Shown here: piece by piece, positions 1-6,000 of the stretch
Position numbering within the stretch: the stretch's first letter is position 1
Layout: each line of letters starts with the position of its first letter
Assembly (NCBI GenBank): GCA_043826455.1
Contig: JBDRQD010000032.1
Coordinates: forward strand, 1 to 15,174
DNA from: Candidatus Bathyarchaeota archaeon
Lineage (GTDB): Archaea; Thermoproteota; Bathyarchaeia; TCS64
Reading direction: 5' to 3'
DNA: 15,174 bases
Position numbers: made by a program

Positions 1-3000
1 AGCGGAGCTTGTGTTGGGAAGCGTGAGCCACCAGGTTGTAAACGAGTCTAAGACACCTGTCTTAGTAGTAAAGTAAAGATGCTTTGAGTTCGTTAACGAG
101 ATTATCGGCCATTTCCTCTACCGGAAGAGGAAGTGAAACAAATTGATCATGGTCTACGAAGTGTGTCCCCGGATGCCCGAAGTTCAATCGTTCCAATGCA
201 TGGATCAGTCACTTGGATAAAATCGTCCGGATTACTAATAGTTCGCATTGCGGCGAAAGCACGGATACAGGTTCCTGGAAAAATCTCTGCTAATCGATTC
301 GCGGCACCTAGAAGGGTTGAACCTCGCGTTACTATGTCGTCTACCAACACGATATCTTTTGGTTCGGAGAGGCGCCCCTGAACAGTCAAAGAATCATAGT
401 GAACGGCTGGAGTCGGCCTCTCACTTGACGGGCTTGATGCAGACTTGGGTACTGGTTTTCTCCGAACAAGGCATGGAGCAACCTCTTTTCCGAGGCCTAC
501 GCTGACTAAAGCGGTGGCAATACGCTCGGGAACCCACAACGTACCCGGCTGCATAAGTGAACTCTTCGGAGTAGGGATCAAAATGGTATCTGGGTGAAAA
601 AATGAGAAAAATGGAAGATTAGTTCCTTGATTTCGTATTGTTTGAGCGATCCATTGCGACATCAGAATCGGAGGATTACCTACAAATCTATCACCCTTAA
701 GCGCTAGCATTACGTTTTTTGAGTGTAGTATTTCGTTAGAGTCACCTCGTGGACAATAAGATAAGAGTGCACCGAACTGAAGTTGAGAGAGCCGCATACT
801 CATGTTTCACAGAGCCAAATTGAGTATTCCTTCATGAGTTGGTATATATTCGAATATTTCTTCAGGATCACCTAGTTCAATCGCCCCATACTCAAGCATC
901 TTCATCGGCCAGCTCAATGAAGGATCATTCATCAGAGTATTCCATATGAATAACGGCCTCCCGAGTCTAAGAGCCTCCCACCCTTGGTGAAGAGAACCGC
1001 TGGAGTCACCAGCCTCAACAATGATGGAAGCATCTGATATTAACGCCATTGTTCGATTACGAATCACAAAATCCCTTGGTCGAGTCTGATGACCGCTTGG
1101 GAACTGAGAAACAGCCAGGTGCTGGCGCATGATGACGTCCTGAAGTTTATAGTTTTCTCGCGGGTATACATTGTCTAAAGGTGTTCCGAGGACCGCGATC
1201 GTGTACCCGCCTTCCTCGATAGCTGTTCTATGTGCTTTAGTATCAATTCCTTTAGCGAGCCCACTGACAACTATCGCCTCATTTCTAACAAGGGTTTTTA
1301 CTATCTTGCCAACTGCTTCTAGGCCTTCAATAGATGCATCTCGTGATCCAATTACTGACAGCCTTGGCCCTGGCAACGGGATTGGCAGAGACCCCGAAAC
1401 GTAGAGCTCAGTTGGAGCATACTTCTTCTCAACGTCATTTAAGGGACCCAAAAGTTCTTCTAGGGTATAAGTAAAAATTTTTTTCCCGCCTAGTATTTTC
1501 ATTACACCTCCATTTGAATTCAAGGTTACTAACGATTCATTAAATATACTATCCCTATTTTTATCGTCTTCTCGTTCCGATGTTCGATTGTATCGAAAGG
1601 GTATTCTCACCACCCCCCATTGTCTAAGAGAATATTTATTACGTCATTGTATGTCAAGTTGGGATTTAATCTCTCTTTAATCAAATTGGCCTTAAGGCTT
1701 TCTAAGCGTCTATATGTCTCAAGGTTAAGGGCGATATTTCTTTTTTTGACGCTTACCTTGTTGTTCTGTTTCATAGAATTCACGCTAATGTATGTAATGT
1801 TACAGGTGAATTTATTACATTGAATGTATTTAATGTTACCGATGTATAGGTTACAATACAAGGATTCGTAATTAACTGGGTTTGTCCTTCTTGCTCACTT
1901 CGTAGCAAAGCAGCAACCGCGACCGATGAGATCTGCAAACTGGTGGAGTCGGGCTTCGAGTACGTCTGCGACGTGGGTGAAGCCAAGGTTTTCAGGAAAC
2001 GCAAGTAGCCCTGAAAAATGCGGAGGGATATGCTAACGTGCGGAGAGTGGGATTCGAACCCAAAGAGGTCTTGGTTCTTCCTTGTGAGCTCCGCTATGAC
2101 GCTTTTTGCTTCCTCGGGCTTATCCCCCATGGCGTCGAGGACCTCCCGTACCTCCTTCTCGTCGCTGGTTACCCTGTACACTCACTGAGTTGGAGAGATT
2201 CTAGAAGAACAAGCATCTCAATTAATCAAAGTAACTAAACATTTGAACGAAATATTCAGTTGACGGGAAATCTTTTAACCCTGAACTGTGAGGAAATAAG
2301 CGGAAGGGGAGCTGGGCAGCAGCCCGGCTGAGAGGACGCTGTGCGTCGACCCTTTGAACCTGATCCAGGTAATACTGGCGGAGGGAAAGAAGTGAAGATA
2401 AGGAATATTGGATTCTGGGGGCACACACACGAGGCCCCACACAGTCACACCAGCAGCCTAGAAAAGAAACCTGAAAGCGCGGAGGGAGGCGGTGCGGCCA
2501 GAAGGATAGCACTATCTGCGGTCCTGTCGGCCCTCACCGTCGTGCTCTCACCCCTATACATACCACTCGGGGCCACCAAGTGCTTCCCGGCGCAGCACAT
2601 GATGAACGCTGTGGCGGGCGTACTCCTGGGGCCATGGTACGCGGCCGCCATGGCCGTGGTGACTGGCACTGTTAGGAACGCCCTGGGGCTGGGTACACTG
2701 TATGCCTATCCAGGAGGCATACCCGGCGCCCTGGTTGTGGGCCTAGCCCACAGGTACCTCAAGAAGACCGACCTTGTTGCGCTGATGGAGCCCCTGGGCA
2801 CGGTGGCGGTGGGCGCCACCCTGAGCGCCCTCCTGCTGGCTCCAGCCCTCGGCCAAAGCACGACCCTGATCTTCTTCTGGGCGGCCTTTGCGGCCAGCAG
2901 TGTACCCGGCGCGGTTCTAGGCTACGTGGTACTGAAGGCGTTGAGGAGACTTGGACTCATTGGAACTCTCCTTTAAGGAGCTCAGGGGAATGAGGACCAT

Positions 3001-6000
3001 CATCCTCGGAGACGTGGGGACGGGCAAGACCCTCCTCACCAGGAGGCTCCTACATGAAGCCTTGGAGGAGGCGGGGGGGCTGGTAACTGTGCTGGACTTC
3101 GCGCCCCCAGCCAAGGTAGTTTCAGGCTTAAGGGTGGGCGGGCTCCTCACCGGGGAGGAGCACCCCAGGCTCAGGCACCTGAAGTCGAGCCTCATCGAGA
3201 CCCCGAGGCTATCGGCTGGAAGCGGCGACGAGCTGGTTAGGCTGGCCGACCACAACAAGAGGATCACAGAAGCCATGCTGAGAGAGTTCACCCTGTCACC
3301 CACAGAGGCCCTGTTCGTCAACGACGCCTCAATCTACTTGCAGAGGGGCGAGATCGATCGCCTTTGGCGAGCCTTCGAGGCCGCTGAGACGGTCGTGGCC
3401 AACGGCTACTACGGTGAGAAGCTGCAGGCGGACTACGGGACGGGGCTGTCCTCCAGGGAAAAGACGCTGATGGAGGAGCTCGCCTCTAGGATGGACAGGG
3501 TGATCAGGCTATGACCCACCCATCTTCTCCCCGTTTTTCAGGTTCAACGAAAGGAAGGAGTGATTGAAATGACGACCCAGATGGAGTATGCGAAGAAGGG
3601 TAAGCTGACAGACGAGGTGAAGAGCGTCGCGAAGGCCGAGGGGTTGACCCCGGGGCACGTGATGCGCGGAGTCGCTGAGGGGCGGATAGTTATCACCCGT
3701 AACCTCGACCACGAGATCCCAGCGATGGGCATAGGTGACGGATTGAGGATAAAGGTGAACGCCAACATAGGCACGTCGAGGGATATCTGCGACGTCGACA
3801 GGGAGCTGCTGAAGGCGAAGGCCGCCCACGAGGCGGGCGCCGACACCTTGATGGATCTGAGCACCGGCGGCGACATCGACGCCAATAGGCGGAAGATCAT
3901 GAAGGCGACGCCTCTCCCCATCGGAACCGTCCCCATCTACCAGGCGGCCATCAATGCCCAGGAGAAGAGGGGCGCCATAGTCGACATGACGGAGGATGAC
4001 CTCTTCAATGTCATCGAGAGGAACGCGAAGGACGGCGTGGACTTCGTAACCGTTCACTGTGGCATAAACAAGGTCAGCGTGGACAGGATAAAGAGGAGCA
4101 AGAGGCTCACGGGCATCGTGAGCAGGGGAGGCACCTTCCTGGCCGCATGGATAATGCACAACGGCCAGGAGAACCCACTGTATGGGAACTACGACTACCT
4201 CCTCGAGCTGGCGAAGAAGTACGATATGGCGCTGAGCCTCGGCGACGGGCTTCGCCCGGGCTGCATACAGGACGCCACGGACGGCCCCCAGATCCAGGAA
4301 CTCATAATCATCGGAGAGCTCGTCGATCGGGCGAGAGCTGCGGGTGTGCAGGCGATGGTTGAAGGTCCTGGCCACGTACCCATCGACCAGATCGATGCGA
4401 ACGTCAAATTGGAGAAGGCGGTCTGCAAGGGGGCGCCTTTCTACGTCCTCGGGCCGCTGGTCACCGATGTCGCTCCGGGCTACGACCACATCGTCGGAGC
4501 CATAGGAGGAGCCGTGGCCGCCATGGCTGGGGCCGACTACCTCTGCTACGTGACGCCGACCGAGCACATAGGCCTCCCAGACGTGGAGGACGTGAGGGAG
4601 GGCGTGATCGTCTCCAGGATCGCGGCCCACGTGGGCGACCTCGTCAGGAGGAGGGATAAGGCGATCGTGTGGGATAACGACATGTCGAAGGCGCGGGCAG
4701 AGCTCGACTGGCAGAGGCAGATAGATCTCTCGATCAACCCGGCGAGGGTGAGGAGGGTGAAGGAGGAGCGCTCGCCGGGTGAGATGGCGGACAAGGGCTG
4801 CAGCATGTGCGGGGAGTACTGCGCCATCAAGATCCTCAAGGAGTACATGAGGGCGGAGCACTGATGCTCAAGATAGCGTGTGTTCTGACGATAGCCGGCT
4901 CCGACAGCGGAGGCGGGGCGGGCATTCAGGCGGACCTGAAGACCTTCGCGGCCCTGGGCGTCTACGGGATGTCAGCCATCACAGCAGTAACGGCTCAGAA
5001 CACGGTGGAGGTGACGGCCGTCCAGGACGTGGACCTTGAGGTTATCGCTGCCCAGATCGACGCCGTCGCCCGGGATATTGGAGTGGACGCGGCCAAGACG
5101 GGGATGCTTCATAAATCGGAGGTCATAGAGCTGGTCTCCGACAAGATAGTTGAGTACGGGTTCCCCGTGGTTGTGGACCCGGTGATGGTGGCCAAGAGCG
5201 GCGCCGAGCTCCTAGACCCCGAGGCCAAGAACACACTTGTAACTAGGTTGCTGCCCCTCGCCAAGGTGGTTACCCCCAACGCCTTGGAGGCCGAGGCCAT
5301 CACAGGGATCAAGGTGACCACCATCGAGGACGGGGTGGAGGCCGCCAAGGCCATCTACGAGACGGGCGTCGAGGCGGTGCTGGTGAAGGGGGGCCACATA
5401 TTCAGCGAGGACAAGGCCGTGGACGTGCTCTACCACCGGGGCGGGTTCAGGCTCCTGGAGGCTAAGAGGCACCAGACCGGGGACACCCACGGCACGGGGT
5501 GCAGCCTGAGCGCCGCCATAGCTGCTGAACTGGCAAAGGGAGCTGAGATACCTGACGCCGTGGAGAGGGCTAAGATGTACGTCAACACGGCCATCCTGCA
5601 TGGGCTCAGGCTGGGGCGCGGCCACGGCCCCCTGAACCACATGGCCGAGCTGACGAACGAGGCCGAAAAGATCACAGTCCTAGGGAATGTCCGAGAGGCC
5701 GTGAAGGTCATCGAGGCGGAGCCAAGGCTGCGAGAGCTGGTGGCCGAGTGCCAGATGAACGTGGGCATGGCCCTGCCCCACGCGTCCACGGTGGAGGACG
5801 TGGCTGCCGTGGAGGGTAGATTAACGAGGAGGGGTGCAGGCGTCAGGGCTTCGGGGTGTCCCTGGTTCGGTGCCTCTGGCCACGTGGCCAGAACTATACT
5901 GGCGGTGAGGAGGTTCGACCCGTCCGTGAGGGCCGCGTTGAATGTGAGGTACTCTGAGGAGGCCGTGAAGGCGCTTGGGGAGATGGGGCTGGTGGTCTCC

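Follow-up and report, generated by a model that had tools for sequence, protein, structure and literature searches.

A gene of the Candidatus Bathyarchaeota genome, in a thiamine operon led by a riboswitch, encodes a 184-amino-acid P-loop protein of no named family. The best-supported reading of this gene is that it encodes a non-orthologous hydroxyethylthiazole (HET) kinase, to which we give a probability of about 60%. The window, that is the whole stretch of 15,174 nt that was analysed, contains the following operon.

2295..2405, forward strand: TPP riboswitch aptamer RF00059 (64.1 bits, E 6.8e-11)
2392..2976, forward strand: thiW, ECF transporter S component (PF09512 156.6 bits, TIGR02359 156 bits)
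2960..3514, forward strand: 184-aa P-loop protein, candidate hydroxyethylthiazole kinase (Walker A and B, no named family)
3560..4864, forward strand: thiC, phosphomethylpyrimidine synthase (PF01964 647.6 bits, NF009895 645.7 bits)
4867..6216, forward strand: thiD-thiN fusion, HMP/HMP-P kinase and thiamine-phosphate synthase (PF08543 325.5 bits, PF10120 196.7 bits, NF006346 559 bits)
6219..6887, forward strand: tenA, thiaminase II / pyrimidine salvage (PF03070 130.1 bits, TIGR04306 156 bits)

The operon and the missing source of thiazole phosphate

The survey's finding of a riboswitch followed by thiW, an unnamed P-loop gene, thiC, thiD-thiN and tenA was borne out by these matches. The riboswitch is the sole Rfam match in the window, covers positions 1-105 of the covariance model and exceeds its gathering score of 54.3 bits. 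ThiW is far above the curated cut-offs of both its profiles (30.3 bits for PF09512 and 84.35 for TIGR02359). Its most likely start is the GTG at 2392, within the 3' end of the aptamer, and a Shine-Dalgarno-like GGAGG at 2380-2384 lies inside the 3' part of the aptamer. Homologous thiW genes in six other loci (L008, L009, L018, L025, L026 and L037) have their start codons 4-14 nt upstream of the point where the aptamer match ends. The P-loop gene overlaps thiW by 17 nt, up to and including the thiW stop codon (2974-2976), and has an alternative TTG start at 2951. For tenA the GTG at 6219 is the most likely start, with a GGAGG 11 nt upstream. Passages of two papers annotate ThiW as a thiazole (HET) importer (PMC5627462, PMC5322297), an assignment of substrate that is itself a prediction.

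The second riboswitch-led operon, said to hold a 52%-identical copy, is also present. On contig C66 the paralogue (C66:6317-6859) shares 51.9% identity across 181 aa, and the order is riboswitch (C66:5636-5746, 62.5 bits), thiW, P-loop gene, thiDN, tenA, second riboswitch and thiT.

The source genome, which is 97.66% complete, encodes ThiC, two ThiD-ThiN genes, TenA and ThiL (219 bits). A profile census agrees with the reported absence of ThiM, Thi4 and ThiG. The ThiM profile (HK) reaches only 32.5 bits over 85 of 247 positions inside a 506-aa frame, with other weak matches on the two ThiD genes; Thi4 matches are confined to profile positions ~10-110, the FAD-binding end; and ThiG matches are partial, at 18-30 bits. 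With none of these three enzymes encoded, ThiD-ThiN depends on thiazole phosphate supplied from elsewhere. The separate shared ECF module was likewise recovered, with EcfAA' and EcfT on contig C73, away from the thiW operons.

Is thiazole phosphate the only gap in the pathway? The genome encodes ThiT but has no TPK_catalytic match, and so also lacks a way to turn imported thiamine into TPP. The protein could then be an ATP-dependent kinase or nucleotidyl transferase for a different thiamine-related compound, such as thiamine itself, an adenylated intermediate, or a thiazole that has been damaged or oxidised. We consider this unlikely. HMP phosphorylation is covered by ThiD and that of ThMP by ThiL, and if the protein supplied no thiazole phosphate then ThiC, ThiD and ThiN would be useless in these genomes.

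A small RecA-like P-loop family

The Walker A motif GDVGTGKT (residues 17-24) follows a strand at 12-17, and the Walker B motif LFVND (residues 118-122) ends a strand at 117-121, as in P-loop NTPases. Across 132 family members G17, G22, K23, T24 and D122 are each at least 95% conserved. Seventeen positions are at least 90% conserved, none of them Cys or His, and 11 of these lie outside the Walker motifs. Six conserved residues outside the motifs are polar or charged (D46, R83, N99, T144, Y150 and E167); P82 and G152 are conserved family-wide with them. At E<=1, 12 Pfam families match, all below cut-off and on residues 3-60 only, the best being AAA_22 (18.5 against 27 bits). NCBIfam gives at most 12.4 bits. 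The earlier description of a Walker A, a Walker-B-like LFVND and no named family thus stands. The best PDB profile match is Clp1 (E 0.0099, 18.5 bits), over just 50 residues around the P-loop, and our literature search found no paper on this family.

The AlphaFold model (pLDDT 91.9) predicts a small RecA-like P-loop domain. Its neighbours among solved folds include CobA (1g5r, Z 13.2, rmsd 3.1 over 144 aligned residues), CobU (9vio, Z 12.0) and TK1 (2orv, Z 11.6), and also the ATPases Rho (Z 12.9) and FlaH (Z 11.9). Since 82 chains reach Z>=8 and structures no more than 1 Z unit apart are treated as ties, the transferases CobA, CobU and TK1 tie with the ATPases, and the likeness is not exclusive. 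The best Foldseek TM-score is just 0.47-0.52. In the ESM Atlas unnamed clusters come first, followed by NTPase_1/THEP1 clusters at 0.81; THEP1 itself (1ye8) has a Z of 9.4.

CobA (ATP:corrinoid adenosyltransferase), CobU (adenosylcobinamide kinase/guanylyltransferase) and type II TK1 are small single-domain RecA-like P-loop proteins of similar size, which use the Walker A motif to transfer an NTP group to a small-molecule acceptor. That CobA transfers adenosyl and CobU phosphate or guanylyl groups would also suit an enzyme for another thiamine-related compound. However, they are only 12-17% identical to the P-loop protein, with no Pfam or PDB sequence match between them, and the P-loop family has its own motifs (D46, P82-R83, N99, Y150-x-G152 and E167). 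TK1 has a Zn lasso, which the P-loop protein lacks.

ThiM (EC 2.7.1.50, PF02110) resembles the P-loop protein in the proposed reaction and in its operon slot, beside the ThiW importer and the thiamine-phosphate synthase and under a TPP riboswitch. Fold and sequence are unrelated: ThiM is a ribokinase-like protein of ~270 aa, and the P-loop protein has no HK match at E<=1.

Distribution and gene partners

The distribution was examined in 201 Bathyarchaeia genomes, each at least 80% complete; these and the following counts cover related, non-independent genomes and incomplete MAGs. The P-loop protein is found in 52 of the 201, or in 35 of the 125 that are at least 90% complete, a frequency comparable to that in the survey's own counts for other genomes. 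ThiW is present in 51 genomes, 48 of them with the P-loop protein, and all but one of the 52 P-loop genomes have ThiN. Thi4 is present in 31 genomes, just one of which carries the P-loop protein. Among the 119 genomes with neither P-loop protein nor Thi4, ThiN occurs in 20. In Bathyarchaeia, then, the P-loop protein tracks ThiW and ThiN and excludes Thi4, which argues against a substrate other than thiazole. So does the pattern of ThiT, which the protein does not track (both in 20 genomes, P-loop only in 32, ThiT only in 92).

The evidence from ThiM is mixed. Only two of the 201 genomes have it, both with the P-loop protein (G182 and G242), and its general rarity in Bathyarchaeia means that its absence there says little alone. 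Among P-loop genomes, full-length ThiM occurs in 1 of the 33 from archaea and 8 of the 39 from bacteria, and it also accompanies the P-loop protein in G328. In the Desulfobacterota the P-loop protein is present in 21 of 201 sampled genomes, and cultured Desulfacinum strains carry the gene; ThiM occurs in 2 of these 21 as against 46 of the other 180, a weak anticorrelation (Fisher p 0.17). Such coexistence is confined to a minority of genomes (2 archaeal, at least 9 bacterial), and would be natural if the two proteins had different substrates.

In 73 loci the immediately preceding co-directional gene is ThiW in 21 (plus 1 fused), MFS in 9, Nramp-like in 9 (plus 2 nearby), EcfT in 5 (plus 2), ThiDN in 5 and another gene in 3. 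Fifteen lack any co-directional neighbour within 400 nt, and 5 are cut by the locus edge. In the Desulfobacterota the gene follows three unrelated importer types: ThiW-EcfAA'-EcfT, MFS, and an Nramp-like family without metal-binding motifs. In a tree of 69 rows the importer partner switches at least 13 times, and therefore the function of the P-loop protein is independent of importer type. In five operons the order is thiE-MFS-P-loop (L041, L043, L047, L069 and L074), an arrangement that imitates the classical pairing of thiE with thiM. Of 36 loci scanned for TPP riboswitches, 19 have one upstream; the other 17 have none at gathering score, and for 3 of these the upstream DNA is outside the data. 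One bacterium, G054 (L060), repeats the pattern of the archaeal genome: it has a tandem riboswitch followed by Nramp-like, DUF2284, P-loop, ThiDN and ThiXYZ-like genes, and a census of that genome found no ThiG, Thi4, ThiM or ThiE.

Does the protein act on a substrate, or does it serve the transporter? As an ATPase, gate or chaperone it might bind ThiW or EcfT and drive or regulate uptake with no substrate chemistry. Behind thiW the gene order hardly varies and stop and start codons overlap, ThiW-P-loop fusions occur in four protein clusters and in L019 and G123, one EcfT fusion was seen (P0256), and the RecA-like ATPases Rho, FlaH and KaiC are among the nearest folds. However, MFS and Nramp-like secondary carriers need no ATPase. 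Seven bacterial operons already contain EcfAA', with two ABC domains, and EcfT (in Desulfacinum hydrothermale, L051, the order is riboswitch-ThiW-EcfAA'-EcfT-P-loop), and all but two of the 52 P-loop Bathyarchaeia have EcfT, so that ThiW already has an energiser. In L011 and L042 the riboswitch directly precedes P-loop-thiDN with no importer, and G182 keeps its P-loop gene and thiDN behind their own riboswitch with thiW alone on another contig. Although its gene, like those of EcfA/EcfA' (PF00005), lies next to genes for ECF S and T components, the protein has neither a full ABC domain nor the signature motif (ABC_tran 14.3 bits, cut-off 25, residues 3-41 only). The secondary carriers, the complete ECF sets and the importer-free riboswitch loci argue against a ThiW-specific ATPase, which the survey had held to fit equally well; the odds have shifted toward an enzyme acting on what is imported, and a transporter accessory now seems improbable.

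Some members are found near no thiamine gene. L030, L031 and L033 adjoin tRNA and RpiA, L038, L040 and L071 adjoin Mnh or ATP-synthase genes, and L039, L063, L067 and L070 are further cases. Together with the THEP1 likeness these could indicate a general NTPase, for THEP1-like nucleotide housekeeping or as a regulatory switch, whose thi neighbourhood is inherited synteny. This is very improbable, as the association has re-formed independently alongside three classes of importer, with both ThiE and ThiN, and under TPP riboswitches in archaea as well as bacteria. A housekeeping gene would also be expected in more than 52 of the 201 Bathyarchaeia, and would not follow the presence of ThiW so closely.

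The kinase proposed earlier is thus supported by the pathway hole, the exclusion of Thi4, the tracking of ThiW and ThiN, the MFS, Nramp-like and ECF partners and the riboswitch-P-loop-thiDN loci. Counted against it are the co-occurrence with ThiM, the thiamine-free and riboswitch-less loci, the Rho/FlaH tie, and the ThiW and EcfT fusions.

A proposed route for thiazole salvage

The P-loop protein would be a soluble kinase that uses ATP to phosphorylate a small molecule, from a RecA-like P-loop family that had not been named before. We infer both the reaction and its substrate, which may be HET, carboxy-HET or another thiazole form. The thiazole alcohol would be imported by ThiW and phosphorylated by the P-loop protein. 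ThiN would couple the thiazole phosphate to HMP-PP, made by ThiC and ThiD, and the resulting thiamine phosphate would be converted to TPP by ThiL. TPP would then switch the operon off through the riboswitch, whose 3' part holds the ribosome-binding site and start codon of thiW, and the 17-nt overlap would couple translation of the P-loop gene to that of thiW. D46 may act as base or Mg ligand, R83 may contact the phosphate, and the flexible loop at 151-165 may form a lid.

PnuC and the NadR ribosylnicotinamide kinase form an importer-plus-trapping-kinase pair for a vitamin precursor. Here too a permease gene precedes that of a kinase, which would trap the incoming precursor by turning it into a phosphate ester, but the protein families and the vitamin differ, and for the P-loop protein trapping is suggested by gene order and fusions only. 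The natural ThiW fusions hint at docking on the importer. More speculatively, and with little likelihood, uptake and phosphorylation of thiazole may be one coupled, group-translocation-like step, the same module serving three unrelated carriers and defining two new thiazole-importer families (Nramp-like without metal-binding residues, and MFS).

Bathyarchaeia are abundant in anaerobic sediment and soil, with few cultured representatives, and the exchange of thiamine precursors shapes these communities. If the P-loop protein is a thiazole kinase, it would close the pathway hole in about a quarter of the Bathyarchaeia and a tenth of the Desulfobacterota sampled, and would change their predicted phenotype from thiamine auxotroph to thiazole auxotroph. 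It would give metabolic models a third known source of HET phosphate and add a new fold to the small-molecule kinases. The Nramp-like family without metal ligands and the MFS family would then be likely thiazole importers.

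Riboswitch operons and the gap in the thiazole branch

The Rfam scan of the window found a single element, a full-length TPP riboswitch. Five genes lie 3' of it, all on the same strand.

Features of the window (position, strand, description)
147–803, -, weak phosphoribosyltransferase-like gene; flank, unrelated to thiamine
807–1613, -, DprA/SLOG-like gene; flank, unrelated to thiamine
2295–2405, +, full-length TPP riboswitch; Rfam 64.1 bits, gathering score 54.3
2392–2976, +, thiW; PF09512 156.6 bits, TIGR02359 156 bits
2960–3514, +, 184-aa open reading frame (P-loop gene); start TTG 2960 (or 2951)
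3560–4864, +, thiC
4867–6216, +, thiD-thiN fusion (thiDN)
6219–6887, +, tenA; GTG 6219 is the most likely start, 3 nt past the thiDN stop
7084–7899, +, GAF and winged-helix regulator; downstream flank, unrelated to thiamine

These scores bear out the operon described in the survey's finding. The thiW start was placed by comparing the window frame with nine other riboswitch-bearing loci. In six of these (L008, L009, L018, L025, L026, L037) an ATG precedes the 3' end of the matched aptamer by 4–14 nt; its equivalent in the window is GTG 2392, with GGAGG ahead of it at 2380–2384. The aptamer's 3' part therefore contains the start codon of thiW as well as its ribosome binding site. This arrangement fits translational control, and suggests that a TPP aptamer controls translation directly in an archaeal lineage. 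The start of the P-loop gene overlaps the thiW stop codon (2974–2976).

The P-loop gene has one paralogue in this 2.95-Mb genome, at C66:6317-6859 and 51.9% identical, which confirms the second riboswitch operon on contig C66. The order there is riboswitch (62.5 bits), thiW, P-loop gene, thiDN, tenA, a second riboswitch and thiT. The second riboswitch (63.9 bits; L081:5460-5569, L081 being the C66 locus) is immediately 5' of thiT at the operon end. Just 5' of the riboswitch-thiW unit stands a paralogue of the AIRS/ThiL-like type (51.5 bits to thiL), at about 4574–5563 of C66 (L081:1075-2064), and likewise in genome G212 (L087:6118-7143). In G212, one of three genomes with ThiW and no P-loop gene, a RimK-like ATP-grasp gene (L087:3973-4863) occupies the expected P-loop slot.

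The reported absence of ThiM, Thi4 and ThiG from the genome, which is 97.66% complete with 7.21% contamination, also stands. The ThiM (HK) profile gave one 32.5-bit match to 85 of its 247 positions, inside a 506-aa frame, and weak matches on the two ThiD genes; Thi4 matches are confined to the FAD-binding end of longer proteins, and those to ThiG are partial, at 18–30 bits. ThiL is present (219 bits), and a profile search of the genome found no thiamine pyrophosphokinase. There is one EcfAA' plus EcfT pair, on contig C73, which agrees with the separate, shared ECF module noted before. Genomes of this kind keep ThiC, ThiD, ThiN or ThiE, and ThiL without a thiazole synthase or ThiM, so that some hydroxyethylthiazole (HET) kinase must exist if the pathway works.

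Sequence and predicted fold of the P-loop protein

That the 184-aa protein belongs to no named family holds: the 12 Pfam families matched at E≤1 all fall below cut-off and within residues 1–60, around the Walker A motif, and nothing in NCBIfam exceeds 12.4 bits. A PDB profile search offered only Clp1 (E 0.01) as a name, and the ESM Atlas only 'hypothetical protein' clusters, with NTPase_1 next at 0.81; neither was adopted. About 5.8 billion clustered proteins include 125 relatives of similar length, annotated, where at all, as 'hypothetical', 'GTPase SAR1 family protein' or 'FlaH'. Run in full over 1.84 billion representatives, HMMER gave 263 at E≤1e-3. A search aimed at longer, fused forms yielded only four ThiW fusions, with none to ThiE, ThiN or ThiD.

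An AlphaFold2 model built from a 40-sequence alignment (pLDDT 91.9, pTM 0.90) begins with strand 12–17, the P-loop, helix 23–37, and strand 42–46 ending in D46. A hairpin, strand 71–75, a PRLS turn at 82–85 and a long helix (89–112) are followed by the Walker B strand 117–121 with D122 after it, strand 144–150 and helix 163–177; loop 151–162 is of lower confidence. Foldseek against the PDB gave six matches at E≤1e-3, all with TM-scores below 0.5 (best Rho, 0.47). In an exhaustive VIA-align structure search, where rows within 1 Z unit count as tied, the high-ranking matches included CobA (1g5r; Z 13.2, rmsd 3.1 over 144 residues), Rho (12.9), CobU (9vio; 12.0), FlaH (11.9) and thymidine kinase 1 (2orv; 11.6). 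The predicted fold is a small RecA-like P-loop domain. This class includes both ring ATPases and small-molecule phospho- and nucleotidyl transferases, so the fold alone leaves the function undecided.

Among 132 family members of at most 50% mutual identity, 17 positions are at least 90% conserved: G17, G22, K23, T24, D46, P49, G60, P82, R83, N99, N121, D122, G130, T144, Y150, G152 and E167. None is Cys or His. Eleven lie outside Walker A and B, and six of these are polar or charged (D46, R83, N99, T144, Y150, E167). This suggests a second, specific substrate site. Complex predictions for ThiW and the P-loop protein scored 0.00 in both runs, which had no controls and carry no weight either way.

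Partners and distribution of the P-loop gene

Does the P-loop protein serve ThiW as a dedicated ATPase or chaperone, a role that the survey's finding had held to fit equally well? Scanning a single genome for each GTDB species gave 73 loci. The 34 archaeal loci are mostly from Bathyarchaeia, with single loci from Methanocellales and Theionarchaea; the 39 bacterial ones are mostly from Desulfobacterota (Syntrophaceae, Desulfarculaceae, Desulfacinum, Desulfobacteraceae), plus one Acidobacteriota. Genes were called with a GC3 filter and labelled from Pfam and BLAST.

Nearest same-strand gene 5' of the P-loop gene, at most 400 nt away, in 73 loci
ThiW, 21; plus a ThiW–P-loop fusion in L019
MFS permease, 9
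Nramp-like protein, 9; also L060 (with DUF2284 interposed) and L045 (at a distance of 640 nt)
EcfT, 5; L056 and L057 are added from an earlier labelling
ThiDN, 5; thiW directly downstream in L020, L021, L022 and L027
Something else, 3
None, 15
Cut by locus edge, 5

In L024, counted under no upstream gene, thiW is also directly downstream. The filtered calls revealed MFS genes in L041 and L074 where spurious frames had stood; a putative neighbour 'c9' and long N-terminal extensions of the P-loop frames in these loci are Arg/Pro/Gly-rich artefacts of high-GC DNA.

The ECF sets that accompany bacterial P-loop genes are complete. Desulfacinum hydrothermale DSM 13146 (L051) carries a riboswitch (3155–3256), ThiW (3373–3855), a two-domain ABC ATPase, EcfT (5312–5989) and the P-loop gene (6001–6546). 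The N-terminus of a 675-aa frame in this locus was considered as ThiW and rejected (hhalign probability 0.2%); ThiW is the separate frame at 3373–3855. In five loci with Syntrophaceae-type operons an MFS permease separates thiE from the P-loop gene (L041:4787-5989; L043:4763-5959; L047:1194-2396; L069:4799-5998; L074:4799-5998), with a TPP riboswitch in L041 and L043. This permease is a candidate for a second new precursor importer.

The Nramp-like proteins (PF01566, 225–248 bits; L060:3997-5370; L045:1350-2564; also L048, L052, L053, L058, L059, L061, L066, L068 and L073) are candidates for a new thiazole or thiamine-precursor importer. A TPP riboswitch precedes the gene in L060 and L045. DPGN and MPH, the Nramp metal-site motifs, are absent from these proteins at the TM1 and TM6 positions where Nramp conserves them, which makes them unlikely metal carriers. 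A metallochaperone role, suggested by the Nramp and DUF2284 genes nearby, was rejected because the family has no conserved Cys or His and the Nramp-like neighbours lack DPGN and MPH. L060 reads two TPP riboswitches, Nramp-like gene, DUF2284, P-loop gene, thiDN and an ABC system whose binding protein is NMT1/THI5-like. Searches of its genome found no ThiG, Thi4, ThiM or ThiE; here the pathway hole recurs in a bacterium whose importer is of another kind.

Other neighbours were recorded. In Syntrophaceae, genes for MnmA/ThiI-like PP-loop sulfurtransferases are repeatedly found next to thiE and the P-loop gene (L074:2693-4024, L069:6573-7580, L054:5947-7611); in L054 and in P0266, which is of the same type, the sulfurtransferase is joined to the P-loop protein at its C-terminus. 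A UbiA-family prenyltransferase gene (L043:3107-4117) lies within a riboswitch-thiC-ubiA-thiE-MFS-P-loop operon. The recurrent neighbour 'c7' (nine loci) was rejected as a thiamine gene; it travels with RpiA and encodes a low-complexity, coiled-coil protein with a single TM.

A TPP riboswitch lies upstream on the same strand in 19 of 36 scanned loci: 9 of 13 archaeal loci including the window's paralogue, 5 of 12 bacterial loci and 5 of 11 further loci. The negatives include L048, L058 and L073, with little or no upstream DNA to scan. The riboswitch is immediately 5' of P-loop-thiDN in two loci that have no importer gene, L011 (genome G182) and L042; the thiW of G182 stands alone on another contig. 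A maximum-likelihood tree of 69 P-loop sequences (five truncated matches, L029 and L075–L078, excluded) splits into an archaeal clade of 33 rows, with ThiW as partner, and a mainly bacterial clade of 36, where the partner alternates among ECF, MFS and Nramp-like proteins. Partner labels change 13 times (minimum 4, shuffled mean 36.6); the P-loop protein has therefore re-paired with different carriers several times. The thiDN-thiW-P-loop-thiDN-tenA operon of L013 (Candidatus Desulfaltia sp.) nests within the Bathyarchaeia clade, and its contig was probably mis-binned into a bacterial MAG.

Gene families in 201 Bathyarchaeia genomes (at least 80% complete, this genome included)
P-loop, 52
ThiW, 51
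ThiM, 2
Thi4, 31
ThiN, 100
ThiT, 112
EcfT, 195

P-loop and ThiW occur together in 48 genomes, P-loop alone in four and ThiW alone in three; kinship among the genomes means that Fisher values for such co-occurrence overstate the association. EcfT is present in 50 of the 52 P-loop genomes. The ThiW-dedicated ATPase or chaperone fits poorly, and not equally well, because the gene also pairs with secondary carriers, some of its operons encode their own EcfAA', EcfT is near-universal in Bathyarchaeia, and two riboswitch-P-loop-thiDN loci are importer-free.

Only G154 has both P-loop and Thi4; there the two share one contig with thiDN and thiW. ThiN is present in 51 of 52 P-loop genomes, 30 of 31 Thi4 genomes and 20 of the 119 with neither, 11 of these 20 having only a lower-scoring ThiN-domain paralogue (107–131 bits). 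Thus ThiN in Bathyarchaeia nearly always accompanies either Thi4 or ThiW plus P-loop, and the two thiazole sources are nearly mutually exclusive. A less likely alternative is a kinase for another thiamine-related compound. Nor does this genome have a route to TPP for thiamine imported by ThiT, but the family does not track ThiT (both in 20 genomes, P-loop without ThiT in 32, ThiT without P-loop in 92).

Both ThiM genomes (G182, G242) also have P-loop and ThiW, with thiM in a thiM-thiE pair. Among the species-level P-loop genomes, full-length ThiM occurs in 1 of 33 archaea and 8 of 39 bacteria (one interrupted by TAA); the remaining 23 archaeal matches are partial, at 25–37 bits, all but two in frames of 449–625 aa. 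In a second sample, 201 Desulfobacterota genomes, P-loop was found in 21, ThiM in 48 and both in two (G328, G468). The anticorrelation there is not significant (2 of 21 P-loop genomes against 46 of 180 others, Fisher p 0.17), a trend in the expected direction that is short of demonstration. The P-loop match of G468 (C29:16760-17041), a fragment that scores 47 bits and contains an in-frame TAG, may be a decaying redundant copy; the ThiM of this genome is intact (289.5 bits).

A candidate thiazole kinase

The P-loop gene is the sole conserved gene of the operon without an assigned function, and its product is predicted to bind NTP and has a specific-looking second site. We consider an enzyme that phosphorylates imported thiazole the most economical account of it, with a probability of roughly 60%. 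The survey's proposal of a non-orthologous HET kinase is supported to that extent as the best explanation. Candidate substrates are HET, carboxy-HET or another thiazole form, among which the sequence does not discriminate.

ThiW as a thiazole or HET transporter reportedly goes back to comparative-genomics papers by Rodionov and colleagues. It is so described in PMC5627462 and PMC5322297. Passages of PMC13325395, PMC6478431 and PMC11223231 list thiamine salvage and transport genes with no mention of the P-loop family. A full-text literature search that takes in few subscription journals found no publication naming or testing it. The present analysis contributes the pairings with MFS and Nramp-like carriers, the completeness of the ECF sets, the riboswitch loci that have no importer, the exclusion of Thi4, the finding that the family is independent of ThiT, and the assignment of the fold. 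HET phosphorylation is a known reaction; its catalyst here would be a new enzyme family.
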